64,000 nt of DNA. Source: a virus. The DNA lies in IMG/VR virus record IMGVR_UViG_3300009135_000001, positions 11,255 through 75,254 of that record, one strand, 5' to 3'. Below, one piece after another: positions 331 through 64,000 of the stretch; positions within the stretch are counted from its first letter, which is position 1, and the number at the start of each line of letters is the position of its first letter. The position numbers and the translations under genes are program-made. The notes beneath the pieces are model-generated. The model saw only the letters and a program-made list of their open reading frames with translations, was not told where the DNA came from and searched no databases.

Positions 331-484
331 CCAGCTTAATCTTGAGCCCCACAATGATCTCAGCCTGTTCCACGGTAATGGGAACGGCTTTGACCAAATT
401 GAGGGTATTCATGATATCGTTGGACGTTAACTCCACCGGATCTACTTCAGAGGTAGGCGGCGTACTATTAGGCTTTTCGTTCAT
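272..484 (-). CDS. Small helical protein on the strand opposite the late operon
   Basis: 70-aa ORF with protein-like amphipathic composition; overlaps the previous ORF tail-to-tail by 59 nt. Confidence 0.45.
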   Translation of the reverse strand: MNEKPNSTPPTSEVDPVELTSNDIMNTLNLVKAVPITVEQAEIIVGLKIKLATFHNRLLAAEQAAAEEQS

Positions 485-549
485 GCCTTATGGTACCATA
501 GGGAAACAGCCCCGTGCAACGGTTTATACACTCCTTGGAGGAAAGCTAC

Positions 550-1626: not shown

Positions 1627-2309
1627 TGGCTTTAGGCGGCAAACTAGGAGAAAGATTTAACCCCGTGTCCCGCAATGGCAGGCAGGACAGCTATGGAAAA
1701 GGCGGGTTCCGCAAGTTCACTAAAAAGAAGAAGAAGGCGAAGACGAAGAGTCCAGACGCCATACTGGCTAATATTACGAATGAGGAGTTCGCGATATATG
1801 AGTCAGACTTCCTCCCCGTAGAGGAGCAGCTGATTGAAGAGGCTACTGACAAACAGTCTGGGAACAAAGCAGCCGAGGCTGCGCTGAAAGATTCGCTAGA
1901 AGGATTCGACAGACAAAGAAAACAATTCGACCGTGGCCTTGGCCGCTCAGGTATAGAGACCACTGGCGCGCAACAAGCCAAACTCGACAAAGGTTTCGAC
2001 AGAGCCAGGACCAGAGGCGGCGTAAACGCTGCGAACCTCGCACGTCGTAATCAGATACAAGAAGACGATGAAACTATTACTGACCTGGTTAATGCAGGGC
2101 AGAACCTACGTGGTGTATCATTACAAGGTCTCGGCGCGGCAAGTAACATGCAGCACGCCCGTGAACAGCAAGGCCGCGCAAACAAGGCGCAGGCCAGTAG
2201 CAACTTCATGTCTAATGTAGGTACAGGCGCTGGCATTGGTTTCTCAATTGGCGGGCCGGTTGGCGGTGCAGTAGGCGCTGGCGTCGGCGCACTGGTATCG
2301 TTGTTTTAG
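1626..2309 (+). CDS. Putative ejection (pilot-like) protein with C-terminal Gly-rich hydrophobic segment
   Basis: C-terminus GTGAGIGFSIGGPVGGAVGAGVGALVSLF (glycine-zipper-like), as seen in DNA-injection proteins. Confidence 0.7.
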   Translation: MALGGKLGERFNPVSRNGRQDSYGKGGFRKFTKKKKKAKTKSPDAILANITNEEFAIYESDFLPVEEQLIEEATDKQSGNKAAEAALKDSLEGFDRQRKQFDRGLGRSGIETTGAQQAKLDKGFDRARTRGGVNAANLARRNQIQEDDETITDLVNAGQNLRGVSLQGLGAASNMQHAREQQGRANKAQASSNFMSNVGTGAGIGFSIGGPVGGAVGAGVGALVSLF

Positions 2310-2318
2310 GATTATAGA

Positions 2319-4316: not shown

Positions 4317-4318
4317 CC

Positions 4319-5908: not shown

Positions 5909-6120
5909 AACTATCCCGCAGAAAACTAGCTGAGCTCCAGAACAAAGGCGTCATCAAGCAGGAACTGGACGGCTCTATCACTCAGGTTAAGGACATCCCA
6001 GGAACAGCCCCAGTCTCGCTATCTGATAATAAAAAGCGTTCGTGGAAGGTCCACGATTTCGAGCGTGACTGGGACGGTTTTATAACCGCCGTGGCCATCA
6101 CTGAGACCACCGAATTATGA
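5905..6120 (+). CDS. Hypothetical protein (first gene of the inserted cassette)
   Basis: ATGA overlap with the upstream stop; 71 aa. Confidence 0.65.
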   Translation: MKLSRRKLAELQNKGVIKQELDGSITQVKDIPGTAPVSLSDNKKRSWKVHDFERDWDGFITAVAITETTEL

Positions 6121-6365
6121 GCATTGCTGTGACAAACGACGAAATTGCCGACCGCCTCGCGAAACACGACGAGCGCATGACTAGCGTGGCCGCGACTGTG
6201 GAGAGAATTGAGAAAGAGCTGGAGCCGTTAACGGAACTGTACGAGGACATCGCAGCAGTTGGCCGTTTCGGGAGAGGTTTAGGTAACATAATCAAGTGGT
6301 TTGGCGGTGTGGCTATAGCAGTCGCGGCGATTTGGGCCACCATCAAAGGGTATCGACCATGGTAA
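6117..6365 (+). CDS. Small coiled-coil plus C-terminal TM protein (holin-like)
   Basis: Heptad N-terminus followed by hydrophobic IIKWFGGVAIAVAAIWATI. Confidence 0.6.
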   Translation: MSIAVTNDEIADRLAKHDERMTSVAATVERIEKELEPLTELYEDIAAVGRFGRGLGNIIKWFGGVAIAVAAIWATIKGYRPW

Positions 6366-6640
6366 AGTGGGCTAGAGAACATCCGTACAAAGCAGCAGTG
6401 CTAGGTTTGGCGCTCCTTATCATACTCACCGGAGCTCTCGAAGAAGTCAGAGCAGCTGAAAACCCAACAGTCCTAAACAAAACACCGTATGGTTTCACGT
6501 TTGGAATGGCCGACGGCAGCAGACGTTTCTGCGCTCTCGATTCGGAGACCACAGTTAAATGTGTAACTGACCAACAAACGATACTCAACTGTAAATACGA
6601 GGACGAACCGGTTTACTTCTCCGGTTGTAAGGAAGAATGA
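6359..6640 (+). CDS. Hypothetical exported protein
   Basis: Start MVKWAREH at 6359, signal-peptide-like AAVLGLALLIILTGA, four Cys. Confidence 0.6.
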   Translation: MVKWAREHPYKAAVLGLALLIILTGALEEVRAAENPTVLNKTPYGFTFGMADGSRRFCALDSETTVKCVTDQQTILNCKYEDEPVYFSGCKEE

Positions 6641-6933: not shown

Positions 6934-9342
6934 ATGGCACTTATCACTGATCCCGATGACCTCTCGCAAGGTACCGAATACGTTGTCGCGAATATGGTTA
7001 TCACGACTCCCGGCACCGGCGCGGATTCCCAGATTACGGGTACGAGCATGGGCTCCCTTGTCGCGACCGATTTCTTCGAAATCCGCGACCACTCTGATCC
7101 CCTAGCCAACGGCTTGTGGCAGGTTGTCACGGTTAACACCGACACCTCTGATTACGAGTGTGATAAAATCTCCAACGGCGCGGTACCGGCCACTGCTGGT
7201 TCTGAATCAGCTTCTTGGTTTGGTGGCGACGCTGCCATCACTGACGAGAAGTCTGTTTACTTCGACACGTTGGTTGAAGAAATCTGGCTCCTGGAGCAAG
7301 GCAACCTGTCTGTAGACGGTGTGACCATGCTGGCCCTGCACTCTTTCATTAAGAAGCGCTGGAAAGACGACCAACTCCTGATTGACTCTGGTGCCTTCCC
7401 GATGGTTGGTATCTCCTTCGCGGCTGGTCAGTGGGAATTCGGTGAAGACCCCTCAGGTAACAACTCTGACTGGTCTCTTAAAGTCGACGCTGGTTCAAGC
7501 ACTGACTCCCCTCGCCTGATCCGAAACGCTGGTTGGAACCAGAAGAACAACGCTGGTGTTACCACCGGTAAGTTCTTCAACGTAACCACTCTTGGCGTGT
7601 TCGAGGACACCGCTGACCAAGCGCTGTATTACTTCGGTAACGACTACACTGTCGACAACACCGTAAACTTCGCCTTCACTGGCCCAGTTAACGAACCTGT
7701 TCAGTACTTCGATCTGATCGGCGACCTGTCTGGCGACAGCCCTGACTTCCCGTCAACCACTACTATCACTCGTTCAACCGGCAGCTTCATCACTGACGGC
7801 TTCGTGGTAGGTGGCCAGATCACTGTTGCAGGTTCAACCACCAACGACGGCACCTACACACTGAGTGTTGTGTCTGCTCTGAGCATGACCATCTCTACTA
7901 CGTGGACGCTTGAAGCTTTCGCCGGTACCATCGCGGTCGACAACGCTAACGCTGTAAGCGTTCAGCTTCGTATTCGTGACGGTGATGCGAAAGGTAAAAC
8001 CTTCCAGACTTCTGGTTTGGCAGAAGCGGGTGAAACCGCAGTTGCCTCCAAGGTTATCAAATTCCCGCTTGCGAACGCAGCTGACCAAAAGATCGACGTC
8101 ACTGACGCGAACGTTGTTACCACCCCGTGGAATGAAGTGTGGATTCGTTACCTCGACCAAGCGTACAACCGCACAGTCGATAGCGCACGTGCTTTCGGTA
8201 TCGTTGTCGACGCTGGTACTTACTCGCAGGCCAATGGTGCCGCAGCTACCACTTCTCGGTGGGACAGTGCTAACCTCAACCTCGGCGCAGGCGAAGCACT
8301 TGCCGACTACGCAGGTGGTACTCTGATCGTGCATGAAGGTGTGAACGAAGGAAGCTACACTATCTCCGGTACTCCGGTGGATAATGCAAGCACCCTTGAG
8401 GTTACACTTGTAGGCACCCCACTGACCGTTTCTGGTTCAGATGAGTCGTACACAGTACAACGTGCTACGCCTCTTGGTGTATCCGCTCAGAACGTTTTCG
8501 AACGTGTGCAGTACGAACTGCGTCAAGCAACCGACATCAACAGCTCTGCTGACGGCTCTGTTATCGGTCTGATGACTGGTGAACTGGCAGCTTACGTTGG
8601 TGATAACGTCACCTTCGGCGGCGCTCTGTCAACCAACCCGAACGGTGGTGGTGATGGTGTTATCGTCGAGGGCTTCGATGCCAACGATACGAACAACATG
8701 TTCTTCATCCATAACGCAGGTGGCGCGGCAATCAACTTCCCGTTCGTTGCTGCTGGCAACCTGAACTTCAACGCGAACCTGACTGGCGACACCGATCCGG
8801 AATACTGGCTGTACTTCCAGTACACCGAGCGCACTACCAACTCTGACATCGACACCGTCGGCCCAGCTGGCAGCTCGTACGACCTGGAAGGCACACTCGG
8901 TACGTACTTGGTCAACGACTACATTCGTATCAGTGGCTTCGCTCAGGCTGAGAACAACGGTTTGTTCCGTGTAACGGTCGTGAACGTTTCAGGGTCTGAC
9001 TACACGGTCATCCGTGTCGATGGCGAAGCCGTCGGTACTGCTGAGACCAACCAGACTGTCAGCGTGGATGAGAACCCGTACAACTCACCGGATGCGATCA
9101 TCGTTAACGACAACGGTGGTTCACCGATCGTCGGCGCTGCGTCGTCTGCATCTATTGCTTTTGACTTCGATTACGACAATAATGTCCAAGGCGGCAGAAC
9201 AACCGGAACGGCAGTCTGCGTGCTTAAGGCCAGCGGCTTAGAGCTTGGGCAATACGTCGAGATTCTGAACCAGCAAATCACTCGCGACACTGGTTTGTCA
9301 TTCACAGCTACCTCGCCGTTGGAACGTAACTTTACTCCATAA
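6934..9342 (+). CDS. Large acidic beta-rich putative structural protein
   Basis: 802 aa, Asp/Thr/Gly-rich; strong SD (AGGAG); codon bias (GCT/GGT/AAC/ATC) resembles the major capsid gene. Confidence 0.7.
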   Translation: MALITDPDDLSQGTEYVVANMVITTPGTGADSQITGTSMGSLVATDFFEIRDHSDPLANGLWQVVTVNTDTSDYECDKISNGAVPATAGSESASWFGGDAAITDEKSVYFDTLVEEIWLLEQGNLSVDGVTMLALHSFIKKRWKDDQLLIDSGAFPMVGISFAAGQWEFGEDPSGNNSDWSLKVDAGSSTDSPRLIRNAGWNQKNNAGVTTGKFFNVTTLGVFEDTADQALYYFGNDYTVDNTVNFAFTGPVNEPVQYFDLIGDLSGDSPDFPSTTTITRSTGSFITDGFVVGGQITVAGSTTNDGTYTLSVVSALSMTISTTWTLEAFAGTIAVDNANAVSVQLRIRDGDAKGKTFQTSGLAEAGETAVASKVIKFPLANAADQKIDVTDANVVTTPWNEVWIRYLDQAYNRTVDSARAFGIVVDAGTYSQANGAAATTSRWDSANLNLGAGEALADYAGGTLIVHEGVNEGSYTISGTPVDNASTLEVTLVGTPLTVSGSDESYTVQRATPLGVSAQNVFERVQYELRQATDINSSADGSVIGLMTGELAAYVGDNVTFGGALSTNPNGGGDGVIVEGFDANDTNNMFFIHNAGGAAINFPFVAAGNLNFNANLTGDTDPEYWLYFQYTERTTNSDIDTVGPAGSSYDLEGTLGTYLVNDYIRISGFAQAENNGLFRVTVVNVSGSDYTVIRVDGEAVGTAETNQTVSVDENPYNSPDAIIVNDNGGSPIVGAASSASIAFDFDYDNNVQGGRTTGTAVCVLKASGLELGQYVEILNQQITRDTGLSFTATSPLERNFTP

Positions 9343-21872: not shown

Positions 21873-21879
21873 CTAGACC

Positions 21880-31545: not shown

Positions 31546-32391
31546 CTACTCATGCGGCAGCTGGCGGATGATCGCATCGGTTTTAGCGAGCGCCAATCGA
31601 CAAGCTGTTCCGTTTTCCTTTACGGCTGCTGTATCTATGTTGAATAGTTGCCCTTTGATTTGTTGGGCGATTGCCATGAGTTTCACGTCGTCGGCGAAGT
31701 TCATTGATTCTATTTGATCAACCACTGTGACGAGGTTGTCGTGAACTGTCGAACGGAAGACGCGACTTCCTGGATTTGATAGTGTCTGATGAAGCGAGTC
31801 GAGGCAGGCAGATGTGCGATTCCATAGGTCACGGGTTGCGTGTGTAGTGGCGAGTTGAAGCCGCCCTTCAAGGTCAGATTGTAACTCGGATAGTTGCTGT
31901 TGGGGGATGTCGACACGGAAGTCTCCTTGGTCAGGGACAGGGGTTATGCGGTGTTCGAAGCGGAATTTGCCTCGTACTGCGTACTCGGGTGGGAAGTCCG
32001 AAATGTCGAACATGTCGCCTAATCGGTTCCTGGCATATTCAATGTAAGTTGGATATCCAACGATGAAGTTTTCGAGGGCTGTGTCAAAATCTTGACGGAT
32101 CTTGCGCATACGAGCAGTGTATGCCGGGATTTTCTTGATTGGAAGTATTCGCGTTCCAGACGCCTCGTTCCAGTCCAGGGTATTTGCGTAATGATAGTTG
32201 CGGGCTTCATTGACGAGTCGTTGAATGGTTTTGAGGGCATCTTTGTGTAACAGGTGTTTGTTGAATCGACCAGCGTCTTGGGTTGCACCATGACTTTCGT
32301 TGGTTTGACCACTGACTTTCTTGTCGAATTTTTGGAATGCGCACTGTGATATGTTCAGTGACACGAGGACTGTTTTAGTATTGAGGCTCAT
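31546..32391 (-). CDS. DUF3150-like protein accompanying the AAA/VWA pair
   Basis: LVSLNIS..FQKFDKK..NK.LL..HY..TL.W..G.RILP pattern; context. Confidence 0.55.
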   Translation of the reverse strand: MSLNTKTVLVSLNISQCAFQKFDKKVSGQTNESHGATQDAGRFNKHLLHKDALKTIQRLVNEARNYHYANTLDWNEASGTRILPIKKIPAYTARMRKIRQDFDTALENFIVGYPTYIEYARNRLGDMFDISDFPPEYAVRGKFRFEHRITPVPDQGDFRVDIPQQQLSELQSDLEGRLQLATTHATRDLWNRTSACLDSLHQTLSNPGSRVFRSTVHDNLVTVVDQIESMNFADDVKLMAIAQQIKGQLFNIDTAAVKENGTACRLALAKTDAIIRQLPHE

Positions 32392-32400
32392 ATTTTTCTC

Positions 32401-33018
32401 CTAGTTGTTAAAGAATTTTGCTCCTAGTAAGCGAGCTTTTGCTATCGCTGTGCTTGTTCCCGGTTTTGTTTCAATCGGGACGATAGGTTCTGGATTCTTT
32501 CTGCGTTCTGCTGATGCTTTCCGTAAGGCTTTTTCGTGGGCTAAGGCATCTATTACTTGTTGTTGGTTGCCTATGTGCGGGTGGTCCCTGATTAATTCTT
32601 GAAGCGAAGTGTAGTGTCGGTATAGTCTGCGGAGTGAGTGATCGCATTCTTGTTTTAAAGCTCTTACTTCAACGTCATGCCGTACGAAATTTGAGTTCTT
32701 GGAGGCTCTGAGCTCCATCTGACAATCGTCGCCTTCGATTGTGAGGTGTTGTGATATTGTGATTTTCCCGCGTTTCATGTGTGCTATAGGACGTGGTAGT
32801 TTTATTTCTTCGTCGTTAAGGTGGCTGTAGATTTCGTTTACTTGATCAAGTGAATCCTTTTTATGGGCTGGGGTTGAAACGTATGGGTTGGAGTTGACGA
32901 TTGCGTGGTAAATTTCGTCGGCTGTTGGGTGTTTTGGTTTTGCAGTTGTTGGGTTCCAGGTATGGCTTGCTACCTCTTCGTTAATGATTCGATGGCGTAG
33001 TTGGTCACTTAGTTTCAT
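32401..33018 (-). CDS. Nmad5-like hypothetical protein
   Basis: N-terminus MKLSDQLRHRII resembles Nmad5-type proteins; weak call. Confidence 0.4.
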   Translation of the reverse strand: MKLSDQLRHRIINEEVASHTWNPTTAKPKHPTADEIYHAIVNSNPYVSTPAHKKDSLDQVNEIYSHLNDEEIKLPRPIAHMKRGKITISQHLTIEGDDCQMELRASKNSNFVRHDVEVRALKQECDHSLRRLYRHYTSLQELIRDHPHIGNQQQVIDALAHEKALRKASAERRKNPEPIVPIETKPGTSTAIAKARLLGAKFFNN

Positions 33019-33499
33019 TGGGTATAAACCTCTTGATTTCTGGTAAGCGCTGCAAAGCTTTTTCTACGGTTGTTTCCCTTAGCGCTATTTCTGCACCCCT
33101 TAGGAGAGCATTAGCGGCTTCATCCATTTCGTCTCTCCGTTTGAAATAGTTGTAGATTGCTTCGGGCACGTCGTCGGGACTGGTTTCGATGGTTAAGTAA
33201 TAAGAATTTTGGTCGTCGCTTATTCGGAGAACTCCGTACGCTTCGTTCGGCAATTCTAACCTGAATGATCCTACGTTTGTTATCCGTACGTTAGCGTGGC
33301 TCCACGAACATTCATAGAAAAACTTGTGAATGGATGGGTCCATTTTGAGATGGTCGGCGAGATGTAAGCAAGTCTGCCAATCAGGAACCGAAAGCCGTTC
33401 CTTGGCTTCGTTGAAAAAGTTCCTGATGTTAACGCGAACCGTGCGCCGTATTTTTTCGTTTGTTCTCACAATAGGATGTCCGTGTTGTCGGCGATCCAC
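33005..33499 (-). CDS. Hypothetical protein
   Basis: Operon-coupled ORF. Confidence 0.6.
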   Translation of the reverse strand: MDRRQHGHPIVRTNEKIRRTVRVNIRNFFNEAKERLSVPDWQTCLHLADHLKMDPSIHKFFYECSWSHANVRITNVGSFRLELPNEAYGVLRISDDQNSYYLTIETSPDDVPEAIYNYFKRRDEMDEAANALLRGAEIALRETTVEKALQRLPEIKRFIPNETK

Positions 33500-34455
33500 T
33501 CGGCCATTTCCTTGGTCTCAAGAAGATCTGGTGAACGTTGGATGGTCATCTTGACCGTCGGTACCTGGAATTCATCAGGCATACGGCGCAGATATTCGTT
33601 GACCTTCGGAATGTTCTTGTCGGTCATGTGCTCTGAAAGCATACCTGCGGTAGCGTAAAGTGATGCTGGCTCTGATGGCATTGGAGTGCCTTTCGGGTCT
33701 TTTTCGATAGACTCGATGTCGGGCAGATCACGATAGATACGAATGTATGACATGAATTCGCCTGCTGCTGCCTCACCCACTGTGGCAATTAACATTTCGT
33801 ATTCCAGGTCAGGTGTTGCAGAGTTCAGGATGCGAGATGCATAGGCCCAAGTACGAGGTGTAGCGAACTGACGTGCGTCGGATGCAGCGTGGTCTTCTTC
33901 GTGCAACATTTCAGGACGAAAGCGCATGAAAGAGATAATTTCAGGACGTACGTTGTTGCTGTTCGCCCAGTCAACCCAGTCTTGAAGTTGGGGTTCGAAA
34001 TCGATGTGGATCAGCCTGTTGTTCAGTGCTGATGACATCTTGTTGGCGAGGGCACGATCTTTCGCACGGTTGCCTGCGCAGATGATACGCCATCCTTCGG
34101 GCAGTGTGTAGTCACCCACTTTGCGATCGAGGATCAGTTGGTAGGCAGCTGCTTGTACTGCATGAGAGGCCTGGTTGATTTCATCAAAGAAGATAACACC
34201 TTCAGGCTCAACATCGGGGTTGGGTAAGAAATGCGGGACGTTCCATACTGTGTAGCCATCGACACATGACGGGATGCCACGGATGTCAACGGGGTCCATT
34301 TGAGACAGACGTACGTCTCGGACAGGGAAGGATTTGCCAGCGGCGACTTGGAAAACGACTTCGGATTTACCGACGCCTGGGGCTCCCCATATCATTACGG
34401 GGATATCGGCATCAATACCGATGTTGATAGCTGCTTCAGCTTTTGACGGATTCAT
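33466..34455 (-). CDS. MoxR-like AAA+ ATPase
   Basis: GAPGVGKS Walker A, FFDEIN Walker B, AGNR, ALNNRL, TPRTW. Confidence 0.9.
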   Translation of the reverse strand: MNPSKAEAAINIGIDADIPVMIWGAPGVGKSEVVFQVAAGKSFPVRDVRLSQMDPVDIRGIPSCVDGYTVWNVPHFLPNPDVEPEGVIFFDEINQASHAVQAAAYQLILDRKVGDYTLPEGWRIICAGNRAKDRALANKMSSALNNRLIHIDFEPQLQDWVDWANSNNVRPEIISFMRFRPEMLHEEDHAASDARQFATPRTWAYASRILNSATPDLEYEMLIATVGEAAAGEFMSYIRIYRDLPDIESIEKDPKGTPMPSEPASLYATAGMLSEHMTDKNIPKVNEYLRRMPDEFQVPTVKMTIQRSPDLLETKEMAEWIADNTDILL

Positions 34456-34464
34456 ATTTTGCTC

Positions 34465-34812
34465 CTAGTGGATGGTTGTGTCAGGTGGTGTTTTCTTGAG
34501 TTCTCCGGAATCACCGTCGACTTCATGTACACCTTCTGGTTCGTCGCCTTTGTGAACTTTTTCAAGTATTTCAGGCAACTGCTCCAGAGTTTTCTCAATG
34601 ATGTGAGGTATTTGGTCGGTTGCGTTCAAGGAGGTGGTTATAACGATAACGCCTTCGCCTGGTTGAGTCAGGATCATTGCGTTGGATTGATCAGTCTCAG
34701 CGTAAAGCTGGCATATGACTGAGGAAAGGATTGCGATACCTTTTTCTGGTCCCATGGATTCCATGATAGACGCAGTAAGTGCATCGATGGTTTCTACATC
34801 TTGCTTACTCAT
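34465..34812 (-). CDS. Hypothetical protein
   Basis: Start MSKQDV after GGAG SD. Confidence 0.65.
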   Translation of the reverse strand: MSKQDVETIDALTASIMESMGPEKGIAILSSVICQLYAETDQSNAMILTQPGEGVIVITTSLNATDQIPHIIEKTLEQLPEILEKVHKGDEPEGVHEVDGDSGELKKTPPDTTIH

Positions 34813-34830
34813 AATTTTCTCCGGTTGAAT

Positions 34831-34865
34831 AAAAAACGCCCACGACAAGGTTCTGCGTGGGCGAA
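34831..34865 (-). terminator. Rho-independent terminator
   Basis: CGCCCACG/CGTGGGCG stem followed by a T6 run on the minus strand. Confidence 0.7.
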
Positions 34866-34896: not shown

Positions 34897-35250
34897 CTAG
34901 CTTTTATGCTTGTCGATAATTTTTGTCAGGTCTGAAACAGCAGCGCCTAATTCGTCGGCTAGGAGTTCATCAACGACTCCTTTGAAGTTATTAGGTTCGT
35001 ACTTTTTGATCAGCTTTTCGATAATGCTGGTAGCTACTTTTTCTTGTGTTTTCATCAGTTCAAAAGTCATGAAACCTTTTTGAAACCACCTGTAAGCAAC
35101 CCAGACGTGGAAGCTTGCTAGTATTCCCATGAGGCTGAAGGCAACGTCAGCGCGATTGATCGCGTTTAAGTCAATACTTACTGCGTACATGATAGCGATG
35201 GCGGTGACCAGGATCATAGGGCCAACAAATAGTTTCAGTGAGGTTTTCAT
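34897..35250 (-). CDS. Two-TM membrane protein
   Basis: Two hydrophobic N-terminal helices. Confidence 0.65.
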   Translation of the reverse strand: MKTSLKLFVGPMILVTAIAIMYAVSIDLNAINRADVAFSLMGILASFHVWVAYRWFQKGFMTFELMKTQEKVATSIIEKLIKKYEPNNFKGVVDELLADELGAAVSDLTKIIDKHKS

Positions 35251-39015: not shown

Positions 39016-39483
39016 TTAGCAGAATTTTTCCCACGAAAAGCAGTTACTGTTTTCTGGATTGCCACGTCCGCCATCGCCGCCACCAGATGAACCAGCGCCA
39101 GAGCCAGAGCCACCAGAGCTACCAGACCCACCGCCGCTTCCACCAGAGGATGAACCGCCAGAGTTACCACCACCAGAATTGCCGCCACCGCTATTACCGC
39201 CGTTGCCATTGCCATTTCCGTTGCCGTTTCCATTGCCGTTACCTCCGCCGTTGTTCCCACCTTGGGAGCCGCCAGCGTTGCCGTTGTTAGAATCGTTGCC
39301 TTGGTTGCCAGGGCCTGAGTTGCCGTGACCATTGCCGCTGTTACCGCCGCCATGACCATGACCGTTACCTTGACTTCCGCCATTGACACCACCAGCACCG
39401 TGGCCGTTGTTGTCGCCTTTGCCAGCTAAGACTGGTTGTGCGCATAGCAGGAGTGCTACGAACATTGCATATACTAATTTCAT
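39016..39483 (-). CDS. Secreted Gly/Asn/Ser-rich low-complexity protein
   Basis: Signal peptide MKLVYAMFVALLLCAQPVLA, (GN)n and GGNS repeats, C-terminal CFSWEKFC. Confidence 0.75.
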   Translation of the reverse strand: MKLVYAMFVALLLCAQPVLAGKGDNNGHGAGGVNGGSQGNGHGHGGGNSGNGHGNSGPGNQGNDSNNGNAGGSQGGNNGGGNGNGNGNGNGNGNGGNSGGGNSGGGNSGGSSSGGSGGGSGSSGGSGSGAGSSGGGDGGRGNPENSNCFSWEKFC

Positions 39484-39507: not shown

Positions 39508-39580
39508 TGGCGAAGCGTGAAGGGTTCGAACCTCCTCGTTTCGGTTTTGGAAACCTAACCGTCCCAAGACTGTACGCTCC
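39508..39580 (-). tRNA. tRNA-Trp(CCA) with shortened D-arm
   Basis: Acceptor GGAGCGT/ACGCTTC, loop TT-CCA-AA, T-arm and CCA present; D-arm only GTC-TTGG-GAC. Confidence 0.7.
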
Positions 39581-39584
39581 AAGT

Positions 39585-39655
39585 TGGTAGCGGAGGGGGG
39601 TATCGAACCCCGCTCACCACAGGATATGAACCTGAGTGTACGCCCGTTCCCCGCG
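39585..39655 (-). tRNA. Degenerate tRNA(CAT) with essentially no D-stem
   Basis: CGCGGGG acceptor with 1:72 mismatch (fMet-like), loop TT-CAT-AT, T-loop TTCGATA, encoded CCA. Confidence 0.6.
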
Positions 39656-47185: not shown

Positions 47186-47671
47186 GTTAACTCCTTAGTC
47201 AGTGAGAATGAGGTAGTACCACATCATGTGCTATGAAACTGTAAGACACACAATATGTTGTGGTATGGGCTAGGGCCTGGTACAGCATGCAATTAGTACG
47301 CTATAGCAGCGCCCAAGAGCACGCCTACTGGGTACGCCGAGACGATGATCCATAGTACGATGAACGTGGTACTGCGTACGTAGTGTATAGTGCTATGTGA
47401 CATGGTATTACTCCTGTTGTGGGTGAGTTCATGATATATACCAGTTGCTGAGCTTGCGAGGCACTGCGCACGTGGCACTGTGTACATCGTGTGTAGAGGA
47501 ACGTTTGGGGCCCCATATTGGCGTTGTACTTTGAACTTGGTACGGTGTACATCGGAATCGGTGCGGAGTCGGAAATCTGGGACAGGGGTATGTGGAATAT
47601 GGACGACCAGAACGCATATTTCGCACGAAAAAAATTTTTTGGATATTTTTGGGTATTTTTTTGGGTATCGC

Positions 47672-47700
47672 TTGACATATGTATAGGAAATCCCTATATT
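47672..47700 (+). promoter_or_regulatory. Sigma70-type promoter
   Basis: TTGACA-17 nt-TATATT, preceded by phased T-tracts at 47636-47662 (UP-element-like). Confidence 0.8.
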
Positions 47701-47745
47701 GTATGCATGACTTAGATAACTAGACAGAAAAACCCGTTTCTTCGA

Positions 47746-48150
47746 GTGAAATTGAAAGACCTCGCCCATGAGGCTCGAATGATTCGAATAGAAGAGACCA
47801 GGGCTAATAAAAGTCACAACTACCAGCTCCAAAACGAATTACATGCACACAGGGTCGGACCTTTGCGTTCCCACACCCGTGAGACCTTGCTCTCCTACAT
47901 GTACTTGCGTGGTTACCCCTACGATGCCGTGGAGGTCACTGGTAGTAAGGAGATATCACCCACAGGAAAGAAAAACATCCGCCGCATGTGCAAAAAGTAC
48001 GGCGGAGTAGAAATGACGCTCGATGAATGGATTTCGGGTAATCGATTAAGGCGGGGTAGCTCAGGAGCACAGAGCGCCATTAACTTGGAGGTCGTAAGTT
48101 CAACTCTTACCCCCGCCACCAAATTTGCCTCGTTAGCTCAGTCTGGTTAG
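47746..48150 (+). CDS. Conserved phage protein whose frame runs into the tRNA cluster
   Basis: LKDLAHEARMIR..HR..LRG..KYG pattern; TAG stop lies in the D-loop of the CUA tRNA. Confidence 0.6.
   Translation: MKLKDLAHEARMIRIEETRANKSHNYQLQNELHAHRVGPLRSHTRETLLSYMYLRGYPYDAVEVTGSKEISPTGKKNIRRMCKKYGGVEMTLDEWISGNRLRRGSSGAQSAINLEVVSSTLTPATKFASLAQSG
48050..48121 (+). ncRNA. tRNA-like RNA with 2-nt D-loop and degenerate anticodon arm
   Basis: Perfect acceptor GGCGGGG/CCCCGCC, T-arm GTAAG-TTCAACT-CTTAC, ACCA end; D-arm GCTC-AG-GAGC. Confidence 0.65.
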
Positions 48151-48204
48151 AGCGCCGCGCACTAAACGCGGATGTCGGAGGTTCGAATCCTTCACGAGGC
48201 ACCA
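48127..48204 (+). tRNA. tRNA with CUA (amber) anticodon and non-canonical A33
   Basis: Complete cloverleaf: GCCTCGT/ACGAGGC; GCTC/GAGC; CCGCG-CACTAAA-CGCGG; GGAGG-TTCGAAT-CCTTC; ACCA. Confidence 0.8.
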
Positions 48205-48208
48205 ATTT

Positions 48209-48253
48209 TATACCCGATCGGGTATATTCTCACTTTATACCCTTGCGGGTATA
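48209..48253. promoter_or_regulatory. Two 18-bp palindromic operator-like sites
   Basis: TATACCC-GATC-GGGTATA (48209) and TATACCC-TTGC-GGGTATA (48236). Confidence 0.6.
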
Positions 48254-57395: not shown

Positions 57396-58082
57396 ATGCT
57401 TGGCAGCGTAGTTATCGATAGGGCCCAAAGGATACTCAATGACACCACCGCCGTTAGGTGGCTAGCTGCCGACCTCCTTGATTGGCTAAACGAAGGGCAA
57501 CTCGCCGCCGTGCGTATTGCCCCCGAAGCCCATACAGTCACCGCAAACATGATACTCGCTGTAGGTGTAAGGCAGAACCTTACAGCTATGGCTGTTATCG
57601 CAACCACTGAGGTACCCCTACGGCTCATCGAAGTCACCCGTAATGTGACCGACGCCACTGGGCTCCCAGCACTTCGTGCGATCCGCTTGGTAAATCGTAG
57701 GGCGCTAGATCAGGCTAACCCTGACTGGCCCACCGATACCACCAACGCACAGGTCGAGAACTACATGTTCGACTCGCGCAACCCCAAAGAATTTATGGTC
57801 TACCCTCCGCAACCAGCGGCAGGGTTTGGCTTCGTCGAAGTCGTGTATTCAGCAGAACCTGCGGCCCTCGCCCTCGATTCTGACCCAATCGTCCTCGACG
57901 ACTCGTACGCACCCGCACTGGTAGATTATATTGTGTACCGCGCACTTAGTACTGACGCTGAGTACGGCACAAATCCTGCCCAAGTCGCGCAGCACTTCAA
58001 CCAGTTCATGGGTGCCCTTACACAAAAGAGTGGGATTGACGCTGCTGTCGAACCTGCTCCCGCTACCACACCGAGTGAATAA
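57396..58082 (+). CDS. Head-tail adaptor (tail tubular A-like)
   Basis: DTTAVRW..LLDWLNEGQ, ALVDYIVYRALS..AEY pattern. Confidence 0.75.
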   Translation: MLGSVVIDRAQRILNDTTAVRWLAADLLDWLNEGQLAAVRIAPEAHTVTANMILAVGVRQNLTAMAVIATTEVPLRLIEVTRNVTDATGLPALRAIRLVNRRALDQANPDWPTDTTNAQVENYMFDSRNPKEFMVYPPQPAAGFGFVEVVYSAEPAALALDSDPIVLDDSYAPALVDYIVYRALSTDAEYGTNPAQVAQHFNQFMGALTQKSGIDAAVEPAPATTPSE

Positions 58083-58795
58083 TGCCTAATACCCTTGGAT
58101 ATTACTACCCACGGCTGAGGCTCAGCGCTGCGCAAGCGCCCGAGATGTTGCTCGGCGACTCAGTACTTCGTGCGATGGCCACAATAGCTCGCGAGACAGG
58201 TGCTTTGCGACAAGACATAACGCCCATAGCATTCGTCGATGGGACAGCGACATACGCAGTTGCGATCGATGGCTTCAAAGTCATCGACTACACAAACGTA
58301 TGGTTCATTGAGGATAGCACCAATACCTCAAAGACAGACGACGACGCCTTCCCGCTGGAACGCACTTCGCACAACGATATGCACGTCAAACTGCAAGATG
58401 ACGATATCAGCCAGCGCCCTGAAGTATGGTCGCACAGCGTAGGGGCAGCGGGCTCAATCTCAGTGTACCCGTTCAACATCAACCCTGCCTTGGCCAATGC
58501 ACAGCTTCAAGCCACCGCAGAGGTGGTTCCTATCCGCTTGGCAGCACAGAATTACAACATGGACGCTGACACAGCGCACTGGGGCTCGAACTCGTTCTAC
58601 GAAATCAACGAAGAGTTGATCTTCACCCTTGCACTGGCGTATCTGATGGAGTACCCGAATAAAGGGTGGTCGAACCGTACGTACGCCATGGAGCTCAAAC
58701 GCCAAGCCAGTTTCGCCATAGGAGAGCAGAAGTCGCTTGCAAATGACGACATGCGTTCCGGATATCCAAGGGCCGTGAAATATGGCGGCTATTAG
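58082..58795 (+). CDS. Second adaptor/tail protein
   Basis: Coupled; located between adaptor and nozzle. Confidence 0.6.
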   Translation: MPNTLGYYYPRLRLSAAQAPEMLLGDSVLRAMATIARETGALRQDITPIAFVDGTATYAVAIDGFKVIDYTNVWFIEDSTNTSKTDDDAFPLERTSHNDMHVKLQDDDISQRPEVWSHSVGAAGSISVYPFNINPALANAQLQATAEVVPIRLAAQNYNMDADTAHWGSNSFYEINEELIFTLALAYLMEYPNKGWSNRTYAMELKRQASFAIGEQKSLANDDMRSGYPRAVKYGGY

Positions 58796-60452
58796 GCTCA
58801 ACTCGTTTCGGGGCAAACGACCTTACGTAATCTCTGAACATCTGCTTGGATTGAGCGATGCTTCGGACTGCACCGACGTTACATTTGAATCAGGACTACT
58901 GAAAGGTATCGACGACGATATCGTCACGGTAGCAGCTGATGCTGGCATCGCCAACAGTGAGACCCTGTATCAGTACTACAACGGCACCTGGTATTCGTTC
59001 GACGACGACACTGACATTGTCACAGCGACGAAGTCAGCCAGCGACGAAACCATCATGTACACCGACGGTATCAACGAACCTCGCTTTACGAATGGCGCAT
59101 TGATCGGTGGCGGTACTGGAATCAGCGCGTACCGCACCTTGGGCATAACCGCACCGACCGTAGCACCCACAATCGCCGCGAACGGCACAGCGGATGCTGA
59201 CCCTGTATACGACACACGTTCGTACGTATACACGTGGTTGGACAGTGTGTCAGGCCATGAGTCTGCCCCCAGCCCTACATCGAACATCCTGACTATAGAC
59301 GTCGTAGGCCAGACTGTGGATGTCACAGTTTCGACTACCGCGCCCGTGGACGGCACATACAACATTGATAAGAAGCGCATCTACCGTACAGTAACAGGTA
59401 CAGCTACCACCGCGTTTCAGTTCGTGGCCGAGATAACCCTCGCTGCGTCTAACCCATACAACGATTCGTTTGCTTCGCTTGAACTCGGCGAAGAGATCAC
59501 TACTCAGGACTACGAGCGCCCACCGCTCCTTATGAAAGGTATTACTGCTCATCCAGCAGGTTTCTTCGTAGGATTCGAGGAAAACACCATGTGCTTCTCA
59601 GAGCCCGGGTTTTTCTACGCGTGGCCACTGAAATACAGATTTGAGTTGGAGTTTCCTATTGTTGGCATCGCAACCATTGGTGGCTACATAGCTGTCATGA
59701 CAGAAGGTGTACCGTACCTGATCTCAGGCACATCGCCGTATAACATGGTGCCTCGGAAGATGGACGCGTACTACCCGTGTGTATCGAAGCGTTCTATCGT
59801 TGAGATGGGCGGTTACTGCGTATACGCAGCGGAAGATGCGCTCGTGCAGATATCTCCACAAGGCGCAGTACCAATCTCCAAAGGACTAATGTCTCGCGAG
59901 CAATGGCAGGACGCAACACCGTCGGGCATCTTCGGTACTCGCTGGCGCAACCTGTATTTGGCCGTGTACCCAACGTATATGGATATTTGGGCACCGACGA
60001 ATCCAGAAGTGGGGCTTACCACTATAACCGTTGTGTACAAATCAACATTCACAAAAGCATCCTCTGGTGATACGTTTTTCGTCAACTCGTCCAATGAAAT
60101 CATAAATTTCGCCGAGAACACAACTTCTTCGACTACGTGGGAGTGGGTGAGCAAGCCCATCATGTTCGGCAAACCTATCAACTTCGCGTGCATGCGCACT
60201 ATAGGAGCCTTTGGTGGCACAGTGACTATCGCTCAAGATGAGACTGCGCAGTCCACTACTGGCGATTCGTACTCGTATACCACGCCAAATAACGCGCTCG
60301 TTAACAACACACCGATTCGACTACCGTCTGGAATTAAGTACAAAGGCGTTCGAATAACAATCAATGGCGGAGCAGGCGACGAAGTACAGGAACTACACTT
60401 CGCCACGTCCATAGGAGAATTGCCAGGGACAGCAGGCGACGGGGAGAAATAA
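58782..60452 (+). CDS. Tail nozzle/stabilisation protein (tail tubular B-like)
   Basis: 556 aa, beta-rich; YVYTW..GHESAPSP, KRIYRT, CFSEP..YAWP motifs. Confidence 0.75.
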   Translation: MAAIRLNSFRGKRPYVISEHLLGLSDASDCTDVTFESGLLKGIDDDIVTVAADAGIANSETLYQYYNGTWYSFDDDTDIVTATKSASDETIMYTDGINEPRFTNGALIGGGTGISAYRTLGITAPTVAPTIAANGTADADPVYDTRSYVYTWLDSVSGHESAPSPTSNILTIDVVGQTVDVTVSTTAPVDGTYNIDKKRIYRTVTGTATTAFQFVAEITLAASNPYNDSFASLELGEEITTQDYERPPLLMKGITAHPAGFFVGFEENTMCFSEPGFFYAWPLKYRFELEFPIVGIATIGGYIAVMTEGVPYLISGTSPYNMVPRKMDAYYPCVSKRSIVEMGGYCVYAAEDALVQISPQGAVPISKGLMSREQWQDATPSGIFGTRWRNLYLAVYPTYMDIWAPTNPEVGLTTITVVYKSTFTKASSGDTFFVNSSNEIINFAENTTSSTTWEWVSKPIMFGKPINFACMRTIGAFGGTVTIAQDETAQSTTGDSYSYTTPNNALVNNTPIRLPSGIKYKGVRITINGGAGDEVQELHFATSIGELPGTAGDGEK

Positions 60453-60455
60453 ACA

Positions 60456-63095
60456 ATGGTCCAGGCAATCACGACCATCAGCGGAATCCCTGCGATTCCC
60501 GCAATCCAGATCCAGGACAAGAACCTTCAGGGCATGCTCGACGCTCTCAAAGAGTCCGTCGAAGTTCTGACTGGTGCTCGCGGCGATCCTAACTCACGCG
60601 CACTGACCTATGGAGAAGCGACCGAAAACGGTCTGACTGACTTGTTCGTGACGAACAGAGTGGTGGAGACGGCCCAAGGGTCGCAACAATCCGTCACGCT
60701 CACAGGCGATATCACAGGCATAGGAATCTTTAGTGAGACCGGTACCGTCACAGTTCCTACCATTATCGCCCTCCCGAATGTGGTTTGCATCGACGGCGGC
60801 ACTGCGTCAGAAACATACCCAGGCGCAGTAACTGGCCCGTATGGCGTAGCTGTTGCGGCTGAAACACCCGTCGCCCCCACAGGGGAGTACTGCCCCGGCC
60901 ACACGTATACATACCTCTCGCCGACGACATGGAGAGTAACAGGCGTCGATGCGACGAAACTATTCCGCGTTGGCAGGCGGTTACACTTTATTGAAGGCGA
61001 CAACGACTACTACGGGACTATCACCGTATCCGTGTATTCAGCCTCCAACACCAACCTCACCATGTCTATGGACACCGGTAGTCTCACCGCTAGCGTCACA
61101 GAAGTTTGTATGACTACCGGAGCCACGGGTATCTGGGACGCTATTGTCGCCGACCCGTTCTCAGGCGGTCGGATCAACAGTATTGCCACCGGTCAGATCG
61201 GGGCTACCCAATGGTGGGTAATAGTCGGAAACACAGGGAAGCTCGCTACGTCTACTGATGCAGGTCTCACTTGGACTCTCCGTACACTGACAACCACTGA
61301 ACACCTGAACACAATCGCGTATGATCACACCAACGAAGAGTTTTGGGTTGGCGGCGACGCAGGCGTAATCGTCGATAGCGCCGACGGCACTACGTGGAGC
61401 GAGGACACTACATCGATCCCAGGATTAGGCGGCACCGGCAACCACAATGTCGTCGGTATAATTTGGAACTCCACCAACGCCGCTGTAGAAATATACTACA
61501 AAGATACCGTCTCCAACTACAGGTCTGCGGCGACTACTGATGGCGGCACAACTTGGACAGATTATGCTACGCTCGGGCAATTCAGTTTCAACGATTGCTT
61601 GGAACCCGCCCGCGCATCCGCAGGCAATACAACAGGAGCTGGTAAATACACCACCACCTTAAACAATACTAGTGTATACGTCGCCTCCAGCCACACCGAT
61701 ACAAGCTGGTCCATTTCTTACGGCGCAGGCACAGGCAATATAGTCAGTGCCATGGCAATATTCCACGATGGCACAGGCCAATCTGTTGTTTTAGGTGCCT
61801 TCAACGGTAATATAACAGGGTCGGCGATTTGGACTGGCGACCAAACTGATGGTCTTTTCACTGACCCAATCAACCACTTCGCGTGGTCCGACACCCACCA
61901 GCGTTTGGTATGCGTGGGCGACAACGGGACAATAGGTTACCAAGATCTAGGCGATAAGGAAAACAGCAACGCATGGACGTCCGTAACTGGCGGCTTCTCG
62001 CCCATCGCCGAGATAACTAGCGTAGAGTGGAATACTGCCGACGGTATTTTCGTAGCAGTAGCCGCCGACGGGGCTATATGCCGCAGTTCTACTGGTATCG
62101 GCCCCACCGTCGATGCCGTCACCCACGACGGGTTCACACTGATTGCATCGGACCCATTCAGCGGCGGGCAAATTAACAGGATCATATCAGGCGTTATCGC
62201 CGGTACAGTCTGGTGGGTTGCCATCGGCGACAACGGTAAGCTCTACACCTCCACTGACAAAGGTGTTACCTGGACTGTACGGACTACCAGTACAACCGCC
62301 AACCTGCTTTCGATTGGTTACAACTCCACCGACGAACAGTTCGTCGTAGGCGCAGTAGGCGGTGAGTTCTTGGATAGTACCAACGGCACTACGTGGACAC
62401 GGGACAACACAACTATCGCAGCGCTTGGCCACTCCGGTGTGGACGACGTGTGGGGTATCGTGTGGTCCCCGACCGATGCTCTGTGGCACTGGATAATTCA
62501 CTCCAATCCTGGGACAGCTATGCGGACGTACACCACCACCAACGCGGTGACTACTTTCACGTCCCGCGACATCGGCATCGTTTTCCATGCTGGCGGAAGT
62601 AGCAAACTCCAAGCCACAGGCAACGTAATTGCTTGGACCTCCACCGAAGACACGCAGTACCACATCGGTGCGACGGACACTACAGACTCAGTCTATGCTT
62701 CCTTCGCCGACGCCTCAGATATGATGGGCCACGGGTTCGCCGCTGGCACCGGCTCATTCACACACGACTACATCGTCGGTAAGGCTGACGGCAACACATA
62801 CCGCATGGGTTCTACAACCGGCGGGGCAACCACCCGCCACAGCGCGAAGCCTCACTCAGATACTTGGCGCGGTTTTGATAGCAGCACCATAGGAACCAAA
62901 AGATGGATAGGCGTAGGCGACAACGGCCAAATGTGGACAGTTGAAACAGCTTTTTTCGAAAGCGGTAAGTGGGAAGAAATCATCGACCCTTTCACTGCGC
63001 ACATACGTGATGTACACTATAACGCTACGGATGCCTACTGGATTGCAGTCGGCAGTAACGGGCAAATCGCCAGAAGCCCAGACGGGATAAGCTAG
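60456..63095 (+). CDS. Tail fibre/receptor-binding protein with two tandem BNR-type beta-propellers
   Basis: N-terminal anchor ALKESVEVLTGARG; Asp-box repeats STDAGLTW, SADGTTW, STDKGVTW; internal duplication DPFSGG..WW. Confidence 0.8.
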   Translation: MVQAITTISGIPAIPAIQIQDKNLQGMLDALKESVEVLTGARGDPNSRALTYGEATENGLTDLFVTNRVVETAQGSQQSVTLTGDITGIGIFSETGTVTVPTIIALPNVVCIDGGTASETYPGAVTGPYGVAVAAETPVAPTGEYCPGHTYTYLSPTTWRVTGVDATKLFRVGRRLHFIEGDNDYYGTITVSVYSASNTNLTMSMDTGSLTASVTEVCMTTGATGIWDAIVADPFSGGRINSIATGQIGATQWWVIVGNTGKLATSTDAGLTWTLRTLTTTEHLNTIAYDHTNEEFWVGGDAGVIVDSADGTTWSEDTTSIPGLGGTGNHNVVGIIWNSTNAAVEIYYKDTVSNYRSAATTDGGTTWTDYATLGQFSFNDCLEPARASAGNTTGAGKYTTTLNNTSVYVASSHTDTSWSISYGAGTGNIVSAMAIFHDGTGQSVVLGAFNGNITGSAIWTGDQTDGLFTDPINHFAWSDTHQRLVCVGDNGTIGYQDLGDKENSNAWTSVTGGFSPIAEITSVEWNTADGIFVAVAADGAICRSSTGIGPTVDAVTHDGFTLIASDPFSGGQINRIISGVIAGTVWWVAIGDNGKLYTSTDKGVTWTVRTTSTTANLLSIGYNSTDEQFVVGAVGGEFLDSTNGTTWTRDNTTIAALGHSGVDDVWGIVWSPTDALWHWIIHSNPGTAMRTYTTTNAVTTFTSRDIGIVFHAGGSSKLQATGNVIAWTSTEDTQYHIGATDTTDSVYASFADASDMMGHGFAAGTGSFTHDYIVGKADGNTYRMGSTTGGATTRHSAKPHSDTWRGFDSSTIGTKRWIGVGDNGQMWTVETAFFESGKWEEIIDPFTAHIRDVHYNATDAYWIAVGSNGQIARSPDGIS

Positions 63096-63361
63096 TGGCA
63101 CAGCACATAGTACAACTACAGATGCGTCGAGATACGGCGGCTAACTGGACCACTGCCGACACTGTATTACTCGCCAGTGAGATAGGGTTCGAGACTGACA
63201 CCGGTTGGCATAAGATCGGTGACGGTTCTACCGCGTGGACGTCGCTTCCCTATTACCACGGAGCGCCGTGGCTACAGGGCGTGGATGCAGGCACCCCCAC
63301 ATCAACTTACCCCGGTGAGCCGACCGACCCATACTTCGGCGTCATGAGCACCGCTCCGTAA
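63095..63361 (+). CDS. Stand-alone Mtd_N-type domain protein
   Basis: QMRRDTAANWT..EIGFETDTG..KIGDG..W..LPY. Confidence 0.8.
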   Translation: MAQHIVQLQMRRDTAANWTTADTVLLASEIGFETDTGWHKIGDGSTAWTSLPYYHGAPWLQGVDAGTPTSTYPGEPTDPYFGVMSTAP

Positions 63362-64000
63362 TGGCTGGCCCCATTATCCAACTAGCGATGCGTCGCGATG
63401 TTGCGGCGGATTGGACATCAAACGACCCAATACTAGCCTCAGGCGAGATCGGGTATGAAACCGATACTGGCTGGCACAAGATGGGTGATGGGTCATCCAC
63501 ATGGACAGAATTGGGTTATTACCACGGCCCGCCTTGGTTGGAAGGCTGGGACGGCGGCACACCCAGTTCAACGTTTCCAGGTACGCCTATACCGGCTGAT
63601 AAATTCGGCGTTATGAGTTCCGTTGATTTAGGTATACTTCCGCCGATCTCGCTGGACCTTAGCGAAGGCTGGAACAAGATGGAAGCTATCGGCCGCGCCG
63701 ATCCCGCCGATGGCGGAACAATCTCAATTGTCGGCAGTAAGACTGGCGCTACATTCGACTTGGGCATTCTGAATGTCTCGACCAACACAATGACGACAAT
63801 AACAGACGCCTTCGCCGGTACTGGGATGACGGTCTGCTCGGGTATTGACTACGATGCGTCTAGTGGAATATACGTGGTTCTCCGAAGAAATTCTGTCGGT
63901 AATACATACCACACTTACTGGGCGGATACTGGTGATCTGGACGGACCACCAACCCCGGCACGGCCTCTCACGGTGCGTATGGCCTGTGGTTTGACTCTAA
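63361..64000 (+). CDS. Mtd_N-type tail fibre, 3'-truncated by the window end (not in the ORF track)
   Basis: TAATG coupling; MAGPIIQLAMRRDVAADWTSNDPILASGEIGYETDTGWHKMGDG; frame open to 64000. Confidence 0.8.
   Translation, partial: MAGPIIQLAMRRDVAADWTSNDPILASGEIGYETDTGWHKMGDGSSTWTELGYYHGPPWLEGWDGGTPSSTFPGTPIPADKFGVMSSVDLGILPPISLDLSEGWNKMEAIGRADPADGGTISIVGSKTGATFDLGILNVSTNTMTTITDAFAGTGMTVCSGIDYDASSGIYVVLRRNSVGNTYHTYWADTGDLDGPPTPARPLTVRMACGLTL

Follow-up and report, generated by a model that had tools for sequence, protein, structure and literature searches.

The stretch of DNA analysed here (the window, 64,000 nt, bases 11255-75254 of the 75,483-bp IMG/VR record IMGVR_UViG_3300009135_000001) comes from a tailed phage with divergent arms, of which the leftward one carries DNA polymerase, primase and helicase genes and the rightward one carries those for the small and large terminase subunits, portal and major capsid protein. 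Ahead of the small terminase gene (48382) lies a short accessory cassette, whose features are collected in Table 1: a promoter, an open reading frame (ORF) referred to below as the partner ORF, a transfer RNA (tRNA)-like gene and a complete tRNA gene with the amber anticodon CUA, here called tRNA(CUA), in which position 33 is A. The record opens and closes with the same 6,609 bases (1-6609 and 68875-75483), so the unique genome is 68,874 bp, and tRNA(CUA) lies outside the doubled stretch. In IMG/VR the record is entered as linear and with no end repeats, and window positions 57621-64000 are part of the second copy. The nearest cultured relatives share at most 45% identity in the large terminase, and four close relatives were found in IMG/VR (large-terminase identity 86-88%), including a complete genome of 68,696 bp (G001) that is syntenic with the window at about 75% nucleotide identity.

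Table 1. Features of the accessory cassette, in window coordinates.
Feature	Position	Strand	Basis
Sigma-70-like promoter	47672-47700	+	TTGACA, 17 nt, TATATT; 11/12 matches
ATG ACT TAG, proposed target, UAG as codon 3	47707-47715	+	Only in-frame start upstream of the conserved motif
Partner ORF	47707-48150	+	Homologues P0001-P0007; hidden Markov model (HMM) E 4.4e-28
tRNA-like gene 1	48050-48121	+	Rfam 48.5 bits, 5 anticodon-arm positions deleted
tRNA(CUA) with A33	48127-48204	+	ARAGORN, Rfam RF00005, fold
Two near-identical hairpins, TATACCCGATCGGGTATA and TATACCCTTGCGGGTATA, just 3′ of tRNA(CUA)	48209-48253	+	Repeat search

The tRNA(CUA) gene reads GCCTCGT TA GCTC AGTCTGGTTA GAGC G CCGCG CACTAAA CGCGG in its 5′ part and ATGTC GGAGG TTCGAAT CCTTC ACGAGGC A CCA in its 3′ part. 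The acceptor stem has 7 bp (GCCTCGT/ACGAGGC), the D arm carries a 10-nt D-loop with G18G19, the anticodon stem has 5 bp (CCGCG/CGCGG), the variable loop has 5 nt, the T arm is GGAGG-TTCGAAT-CCTTC, and discriminator A73 is followed by an encoded CCA. The 7-nt anticodon loop CACTAAA (48160-48166) runs in the order C32 A33 C34 U35 A36 A37 A38, with A33 at 48161 and the anticodon at 48162-48164; ARAGORN names CTA as the anticodon, and CUA occupies 34-36 in the sole canonical register, the Rfam alignment agreeing. Against RF00005 the gene scores 62.4 bits (E 4e-11, model positions 1-71 of 71; gathering threshold, 29 bits), the highest score among all tRNAs of the window and genome, and the cloverleaf is its minimum-free-energy fold. 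The arms and the score are thus those of a canonical elongator tRNA, and position 37 is a purine, with U33 being the feature that is missing. The sequence-only reading, which had described a complete paired cloverleaf with this loop, CUA, A33 and A73, was correct in every detail.

A37 and A38 stand after A36, and an A-rich A36-A37-A38 context of this kind is found in known amber suppressors. The likeness to tRNA-Pyl that had been pointed out for the loop extends to the anticodon and not to the body. The hallmarks of tRNA-Pyl are a 6-bp anticodon stem, a 3-nt variable loop, a small D-loop without G18G19 and an atypical T loop, together with accompanying pylS/pylBCD genes. Such an identity is ruled out by the 5-bp anticodon stem, the 5-nt variable loop, the 10-nt D-loop with GG and the T loop TTCGAAT, and the 'Pyl' label given by ARAGORN denotes the anticodon alone. 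Judged by sequence, the body is that of an ordinary class I tRNA and the gene is a genuine UAG-reading tRNA gene in a phage with the standard code, its decoding being predicted.

Counted from ATG 47707, the partner ORF carries a UAG as its third codon, and its frame upstream of F11 reads ATG ACT TAG ATA ACT AGA CAG AAA AAC CCG. Its family-conserved part extends from F11 (47737) to about 48015. The family HMM, which was built from 13 distant members with the window and its close relatives left out and has 115 positions, aligns to the window from F11, corresponding to HMM position 4 of 115 (FLRVKLKDLAHEARMIRIEE). From F11 it is 3 codons to GTG 47746 and 14 to ATG 47779, and the alignment begins upstream of every uninterrupted start codon of the ORF. 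All distant members share an N-terminus of the form M-x-x-(x), then [FY]-L-K-[IV]-K-[LI]-K-x-L-A-A-E-A-R-I-I-R-x-E-E. From the extent of the alignment, one candidate for a UAG in need of decoding was obtained (47713-47715), with alternative starts existing at 47746 and 47779. A quadruplet reading (ACUA on UAGU) was rejected, as the candidate UAG precedes A and a +1 shift meets TAA at once. The strong sigma-70-like promoter that had been claimed upstream of the tRNA is indeed present, and the ATG at 47707 lies 7 nt past its -10 hexamer; transcription of the cassette would, from this distance, be expected to start at about A47707, so the message may be leaderless.

By itself the partner ORF is stopless, its frame crossing the tRNA-like gene to end at TAG 48148-48150 in the D-loop of tRNA(CUA). 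Seven close homologues (P0001-P0007, 59-70% identity) were detected in Logan/ENA assemblies, and in all seven, as read from the translated tails, a stopless frame runs through the tRNA-like gene into a second tRNA, so the layout of ORF, tRNA-like gene and tRNA is conserved. Excision of the tRNAs from such a transcript would leave a non-stop message, a substrate for rescue by transfer-messenger RNA (tmRNA). The protein, predicted to be roughly 110 aa long, has no match in Pfam, PHROGs or the ESM Atlas, no homologue of the ORF was found in species genomes, and the AlphaFold model is all-helical with low confidence (predicted local distance difference test, pLDDT, 66). The first distant homologue was gp070 of Stenotrophomonas phage DLP5, a weak tblastn match (37%, E 7e-3); a search based on gp070 yielded more homologues in DLP3, Summit, DSS3_MAL1, OLIVR1-3 and NCTB, and an IMG/VR scan with the partner family added ten loci, all of them distant relatives.

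Members of this family stand beside a UAG-reading tRNA in five lineages, namely the window phage, DLP5/DLP3/Summit, DSS3_MAL1, OLIVR1 and the IMG/VR locus L271. DLP5 has an annotated tRNA-Sup-CTA 7 nt after gp070, DLP3 and Summit have a tRNA(CUA) 6 nt downstream of the homologue, DSS3_MAL1 has one 113 nt upstream, and the Agrobacterium phages OLIVR1-3 carry, 100 nt upstream of the homologue, a tRNA with an 8-nt loop and the anticodon CCUA. Taking pairing as the same strand and a distance of up to about 120 nt, tRNA(CUA) of the window lies 79 nt past the family-conserved part, with the tRNA-like gene in between. The record of phage NCTB contains no tRNA, and among the ten IMG/VR loci one has an adjacent tRNA(CUA) (L271), one lies beside a permuted tmRNA, one is near a tRNA cluster, two are beside odd tRNA-like genes with UUCA-containing loops, and the rest have nothing nearby. 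The UAG-reading tRNA bodies of the five lineages are unrelated, so the recurring pairing is one of function and not of inheritance alone. As to the conservation of CUA and A33, which the sequence-only reading had proposed to check, CUA recurs in the partner modules of other lineages, the close relative G001 has no CUA tRNA, and A33 does not occur in the module tRNAs of DLP5, DLP3, Summit, DSS3_MAL1 and L271.

The distant members add further tRNA-like neighbours. L270 stands directly behind the permuted tmRNA gene, and L266 (497-572) and L269 (about 523-593) have the odd tRNA-like genes, with UUCA/UCA in their loops, which could read UGA; ARAGORN names one of these Glu and overlooks the other, and the mini-ORFs upstream of the family member at both loci end in TGA. 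Given that the family occurs beside suppressor tRNAs, tRNA-like genes with UCA/UUCA and a tmRNA, the protein may act on termination or ribosome rescue.

Early UAG codons were also observed in the leaders of the other tRNA-bearing lineages. In DLP5, DLP3 and Summit, AGGAG is followed by ATG AAG TAG GTC TAC AAG CCG CC(C/G) TAA, a mini-ORF (MK-UAG-VYKPP) that ends 8 nt before an in-frame ATG of the ORF and is kept in the three Delepquintavirus genomes with one synonymous change past the UAG. The DSS3_MAL1 leader reads ATG AAG TCG TAG, that of L271 reads ATG TAG immediately 3′ of the tRNA, and that of OLIVR1 contains TAG-A and then CCA TAG G, where the +1 frame enters the ORF directly, matching the CCUA anticodon. 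In full, the OLIVR1 leader (L263, NC_055840, 1012-1200) reads GTG ATC GAA CCT CTG TAG ATC AAG AAA CCT CCA TAG G, and four-base reading of TAGG leads into the frame of the annotated gene with no intervening stop. All of these leaders have a Shine-Dalgarno-like purine run ahead. Overall, an early UAG (codon 2-6) in a leaderless message or behind a purine run was found in 5/5 tRNA-bearing lineages vs 0/8 without the tRNA (Fisher 0.0008, or 0.007 minus the window), the counts being post hoc.

Taken at about even confidence, tRNA(CUA) would be a suppressor dedicated to unlocking the partner gene with which it is co-transcribed, and not an agent of general readthrough. The sigma-70-type promoter would drive a cassette transcript starting at or near AUG 47707, which would comprise the partner message with its UAG third codon, the anticodon-less tRNA-like RNA and then tRNA(CUA). 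Once processed and charged by a host synthetase, tRNA(CUA) would read the UAG at codon 3 and give the full-length partner protein including the conserved N-terminal motif. The tRNA would thus leave the code unchanged and serve a single gene, either as its key or as a self-reinforcing switch, and decoding weakened by A33 may keep readthrough low at the window's 19 ordinary TAG stops. The wider proposal, that a self-contained translational switch with an early UAG in its own leaderless message and positive feedback recurs across unrelated phages, the small protein being produced, wholly or at full length, only once the co-transcribed stop-reading tRNA has overcome that UAG, is more tentative, and we regard it as possible at best.

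Several observations weigh against the dedicated-suppressor reading. GTG 47746, which has no Shine-Dalgarno sequence, could start a protein short of 3 aligned residues, and ATG 47779, with GAGG 5 nt upstream, could start one short of 14; gene callers place the starts of 7/7 close homologues at the equivalent of 47779. Eight of the 13 family lineages have no adjacent UAG-reading tRNA, and if all short start-to-TAG mini-ORFs are counted, ignoring ribosome-binding sites, the association with early UAG is gone (p 0.23). As the association depends on the ribosome-binding-site criterion, the extent of the HMM alignment, and not the cross-lineage count, is the strongest evidence here. In addition, the genome is a single metagenomic assembly, A33 may leave tRNA(CUA) a poor decoder or inactive, and its charging is uncertain, for reasons that lie in the body of the tRNA.

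The 3′ 22 nt of tRNA(CUA) have exact matches in only two metagenomic genes, both tRNA-Arg(ACG), and one of these (L213) has an identical acceptor stem, D stem and T arm. The cultured-phage tRNAs that are 75-80% identical to it are annotated as Lys, Arg or Val, and from these matches the body appears closest to tRNA-Arg/Lys. The main determinants of the arginyl-tRNA synthetase (ArgRS) in E. coli are A20 and C35, and both are missing from the otherwise Arg-like body, hence the uncertain charging. U35 together with A73 is the combination by which the E. coli lysyl- and glutaminyl-tRNA synthetases (LysRS or GlnRS) often charge amber suppressors, and candidate amino acids for insertion at the putative UAG are Lys, Gln and Arg. 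Exact-pattern scans of IMG/VR gave no homologue of tRNA(CUA); two matches to its anticodon arm turned out not to be tRNAs, scanning for the junction of the tandem tRNAs returned unrelated tRNA pairs only, and a D stem plus anticodon stem scan of species genomes matched many isotypes and was uninformative on identity.

The module tRNAs of DLP5, DLP3, Summit, DSS3_MAL1 and L271 have U33, the OLIVR1 one, like tRNA(CUA), is without it, and A33 itself appears particular to the window lineage. The second tRNA of P0006 has the same acceptor-stem start as tRNA(CUA), GCCTCG, and its translated tail would fit a loop TT-Y-T-R-R, that is U33 with an anticodon YUA or YUG, while in five close homologues, given canonical spacing, the second tRNA seems to carry C33. 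Decoding is probably less efficient with A33 than it would be with the near-universal U33. U33 was reportedly found in 1983 by Bare et al. to be not strictly essential for amber suppression, so a weakened yet active suppressor that spares the 19 TAG stops of the phage is plausible.

The 97 ORFs of the window end in 43 TAA, 35 TGA and 19 TAG, and those of G001 in 38 TAA, 32 TGA and 23 TAG, both from simple ORF maps; the TAG shares of 19/97 and 23/93 do not differ (p 0.48). The TAG-ended genes that have a G001 homologue are all about equal in length to it, the tails past TAG stops are not shorter in the window than in G001 (p 0.27), and reading TAG as sense produced no conserved longer genes. 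No conserved gene showed an in-frame TAG in the comparison with G001, a relative without a CUA tRNA. A phage with recoded TAG (code 15) would have in-frame TAG codons in many genes, late ones above all, and few or no TAG stops. Such recoding is ruled out by the 19/97 TAG stops and the G001-equal gene lengths; the phage is not recoded, as had been stated from the sequence. With no TAG depletion and no interrupted genes, tRNA(CUA) is unneeded for ordinary decoding, and the stop usage, being as in G001, reveals no adaptation of the genome to a strong suppressor. No release-factor, synthetase, tRNA-repair or Pth gene was found among the 42 ORFs scanned against Pfam or PHROGs. The claim of an amber suppressor thus survives as the best-supported reading, and its second half, timed partial readthrough, finds no support for ordinary genes in the gene lengths, TAG usage and tails, the evidence favouring the UAG at codon 3 instead.

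Two further TAG codons were tried as targets and rejected. In a six-frame comparison with TAG translated as X, the sole TAG opposite a sense codon in a real coding frame was at window 499, where window 490-513 reads ATG GTA CCA TAG GGA AAC AGC CCC and its G001 counterpart (8450-8473) reads ATG ATA CCA CGG GGA AAC AGC CCC. This stretch lies upstream of an acetyltransferase-like gene, and four more differences downstream are all at third codon positions. The TAG at 499-501 probably lies in non-coding DNA: the acetyltransferase family has its start at GTG 550, with GGAGGA ahead of it, and the divergent ORF on the minus strand (272-484) turns the stretch into an intergenic control region, probably a conserved one with a GGG(G)AAACAGCCCC hairpin between the divergent genes. 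The TAG at 21873-21875 sits in a 7-nt spacer between two genes.

Homology to G001 breaks off at window 47640 and picks up again at 48346, the insert site measuring 170 bp in G001 vs about 700 bp in the window. Neither the CUA tRNA nor the partner ORF was found in G001, whose own tRNAs, Asn, Met and an odd one with a 4-base anticodon, are all located elsewhere; the last of these, a 92-nt tRNA of the relatives with a 4-base anticodon call (tgaa), is L082 854-945 and equals G001 47359-47450. At the same spot L001 has a 163-aa endonuclease VII/HNH-like (homing-endonuclease-like) gene (493-984) behind its own promoter, which makes the spot a hot spot for cargo, and these comparisons show the cassette to be gained and lost as one unit. 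In the tRNA-like gene within it the acceptor, D and T arms are complete and CCA is encoded, but the anticodon arm has shrunk to 12 nt, made up of a 3-bp stem with the 6-nt loop TTAACT, and offers no anticodon that could be used; ARAGORN gives it a 2-base 'anticodon'. Translated tails suggest an equally short arm in P0001 and P0002, together with compensatory changes in the acceptor stem (GGCGGGG/CCCCGCC vs about GUGCGGG/CCCGCAC). Together, the short arm and the compensatory changes would make it a selected RNA and not a wreck. The two hairpins, situated between the cassette and the small terminase gene, may act in RNA processing or in termination.

The sequence-only reading's idea of a general weak amber suppressor acting late, which would give C-terminal extensions or gene fusions at some of the 19 TAG stops or mark a first step of recoding, is improbable. 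Four TAG-ended genes are in frame with the next gene (the sets being 1626-2309 with 2319-4316, 32401-33018 with 31546-32391, and 34897-35250 with 34465-34848 and 33466-34455), and standard-code relatives of recoded phages acquire suppressor tRNAs (bioRxiv 10.1101/2021.08.26.457843). However, G001 has the same gene boundaries, often with TAG, and no suppressor, its TAG share and readthrough lengths do not differ from those of the window, an A follows the TAG stop in only 1/17 examined, and a G+C of about 50%, with TAG not being rare, departs from the route to recoding that has been proposed. An equally slim chance attaches to A33 being an assembly or sequencing error with CTCTAAA as the true loop, a point that concerns A33 only and is compatible with a dedicated suppressor. 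The single metagenomic contig offers no independent copy, and the U33 of most module tRNAs and the tail of P0006 would fit such an error, but substitution errors are rare in assembled contigs, OLIVR1 likewise lacks U33, and the C that the five close homologues would have at this position is not U33 either.

It is unlikely, though less so than a general suppressor, that tRNA(CUA) is a passenger or decaying gene that came with the mobile cassette and decodes nothing now, A33 being disabling and the neighbour a second tRNA wreck. The cassette is missing from the closest relatives and occupies a variable intergenic hot spot, the neighbouring tRNA-like gene is without an anticodon, several other tRNA-like genes of the genome are aberrant, no conserved gene requires UAG decoding, and the IMG/VR scans gave no homologue. 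Decay would nevertheless be expected to hit more than position 33, and all helices are perfectly paired with the top tRNA score; seven other assemblies preserve the layout, with proteins 59-70% identical, and the pairing of protein and tRNA recurs in unrelated phages. Rather doubtful, too, is a non-decoding mimic, in which tRNA(CUA) and the tRNA-like RNA would together be a decoy, sponge or processing scaffold with an incidental CUA, directed against host tRNA-cutting defence nucleases or serving RNase P/Z transcript handling. The loss of the U-turn nucleotide through A33, the adjacent RNA with acceptor and T arms and no anticodon, and the tmRNA and odd tRNA-like neighbours of other members are in line with it, and evasion of anticodon nucleases has been suggested for phage tRNAs whose anticodon loops are altered (PMC10264068). 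That model needs the anticodon of the targeted host tRNA, and no host tRNA has CUA; in four other lineages the family is paired specifically with anticodons that read UAG, a rare type in phage tRNAs, the rest of the loop is a textbook amber-suppressor loop, and a decoy would suit the tRNA-like gene better than tRNA(CUA). Nuclease-resistant phage tRNAs (PMC10264068; T5 vs PARIS and retron effectors, PMC11555353) share the non-canonical anticodon-loop nucleotide, but their anticodon is still a sense one and they stand in for a host tRNA that has been cleaved. A replacement tRNA of that kind is excluded, since CUA would have no counterpart in a standard-code host.

Elsewhere in the window, a tRNA-Trp below the Rfam threshold lies at 39508-39655 with another tRNA-like 3′ half before it. 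A minus-strand ORF (39016-39480) with a signal-peptide-like start and about 130 residues of Gly/Asn/Ser repeats (GNGNGNG, GGSGS) sits between the tRNA-Trp and tRNA-Asn genes.

Compared with the laboratory amber suppressors of E. coli (supF, supE and engineered CUA tRNAs), tRNA(CUA) has the same N-N-CUA-AA loop with A37 and A38 after A36, and differs in having A33 instead of U33 and a tRNA-Arg(ACG)/Lys-like body without A20 and C35. An early in-frame UGA in prfB (RF2) senses termination efficiency, and the gene is autoregulated through a +1 frameshift. In both cases an early in-frame stop would tie output to termination versus alternative decoding, an analogy of mechanism only; prfB uses the frameshift and no dedicated tRNA, whereas the window would use a co-transcribed suppressor tRNA. 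Suppressor tRNAs are known in stop-recoded phages and sometimes in their standard-code relatives (bioRxiv 10.1101/2021.08.26.457843). Code 15 phages, in which TAG encodes Gln (crAss-like, Lak; bioRxiv 10.1101/2021.08.26.457843; PMC9523058), likewise carry a phage tRNA(CUA) in a standard-code host, but in the window about 20% of genes end normally at TAG, and no in-frame TAG was found in its structural or lysis genes. The closest parallel in layout is with Summit, DLP5 and DLP3 (Delepquintavirus; PMC9022506), which have the standard code, a tRNA(CUA) beside the partner-ORF homologue (gp070 in DLP5) and an early UAG in a translatable leader upstream of it. Their tRNA bodies are unrelated to that of the window and have the canonical U33, the ORF before the tRNA has its own stop, there is no anticodon-less tRNA-like gene, and the UAG stands in the separate mini-ORF, out of frame with the ORF. 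The Summit authors sought targets of the suppressor tRNA at gene ends, found none and stated its purpose to be unknown (PMC9022506). Among the papers searched, none was found that links such tRNAs to this protein family or to an early UAG.

Suppressor tRNAs are regularly annotated in standard-code phages, cultured ones included. If the dedicated-suppressor reading is true, a conserved partner gene with an early UAG would give these 'orphan' suppressor tRNAs a natural target and purpose, and the cassette would be a natural one-codon translational switch, like the amber-codon designs of synthetic biologists. A33, if it is real and the tRNA is active, would provide a rare natural test of the dispensability of the U-turn nucleotide in decoding, and it may show how a phage keeps its suppressor weak, leaving its own 19 TAG-ended genes unharmed.

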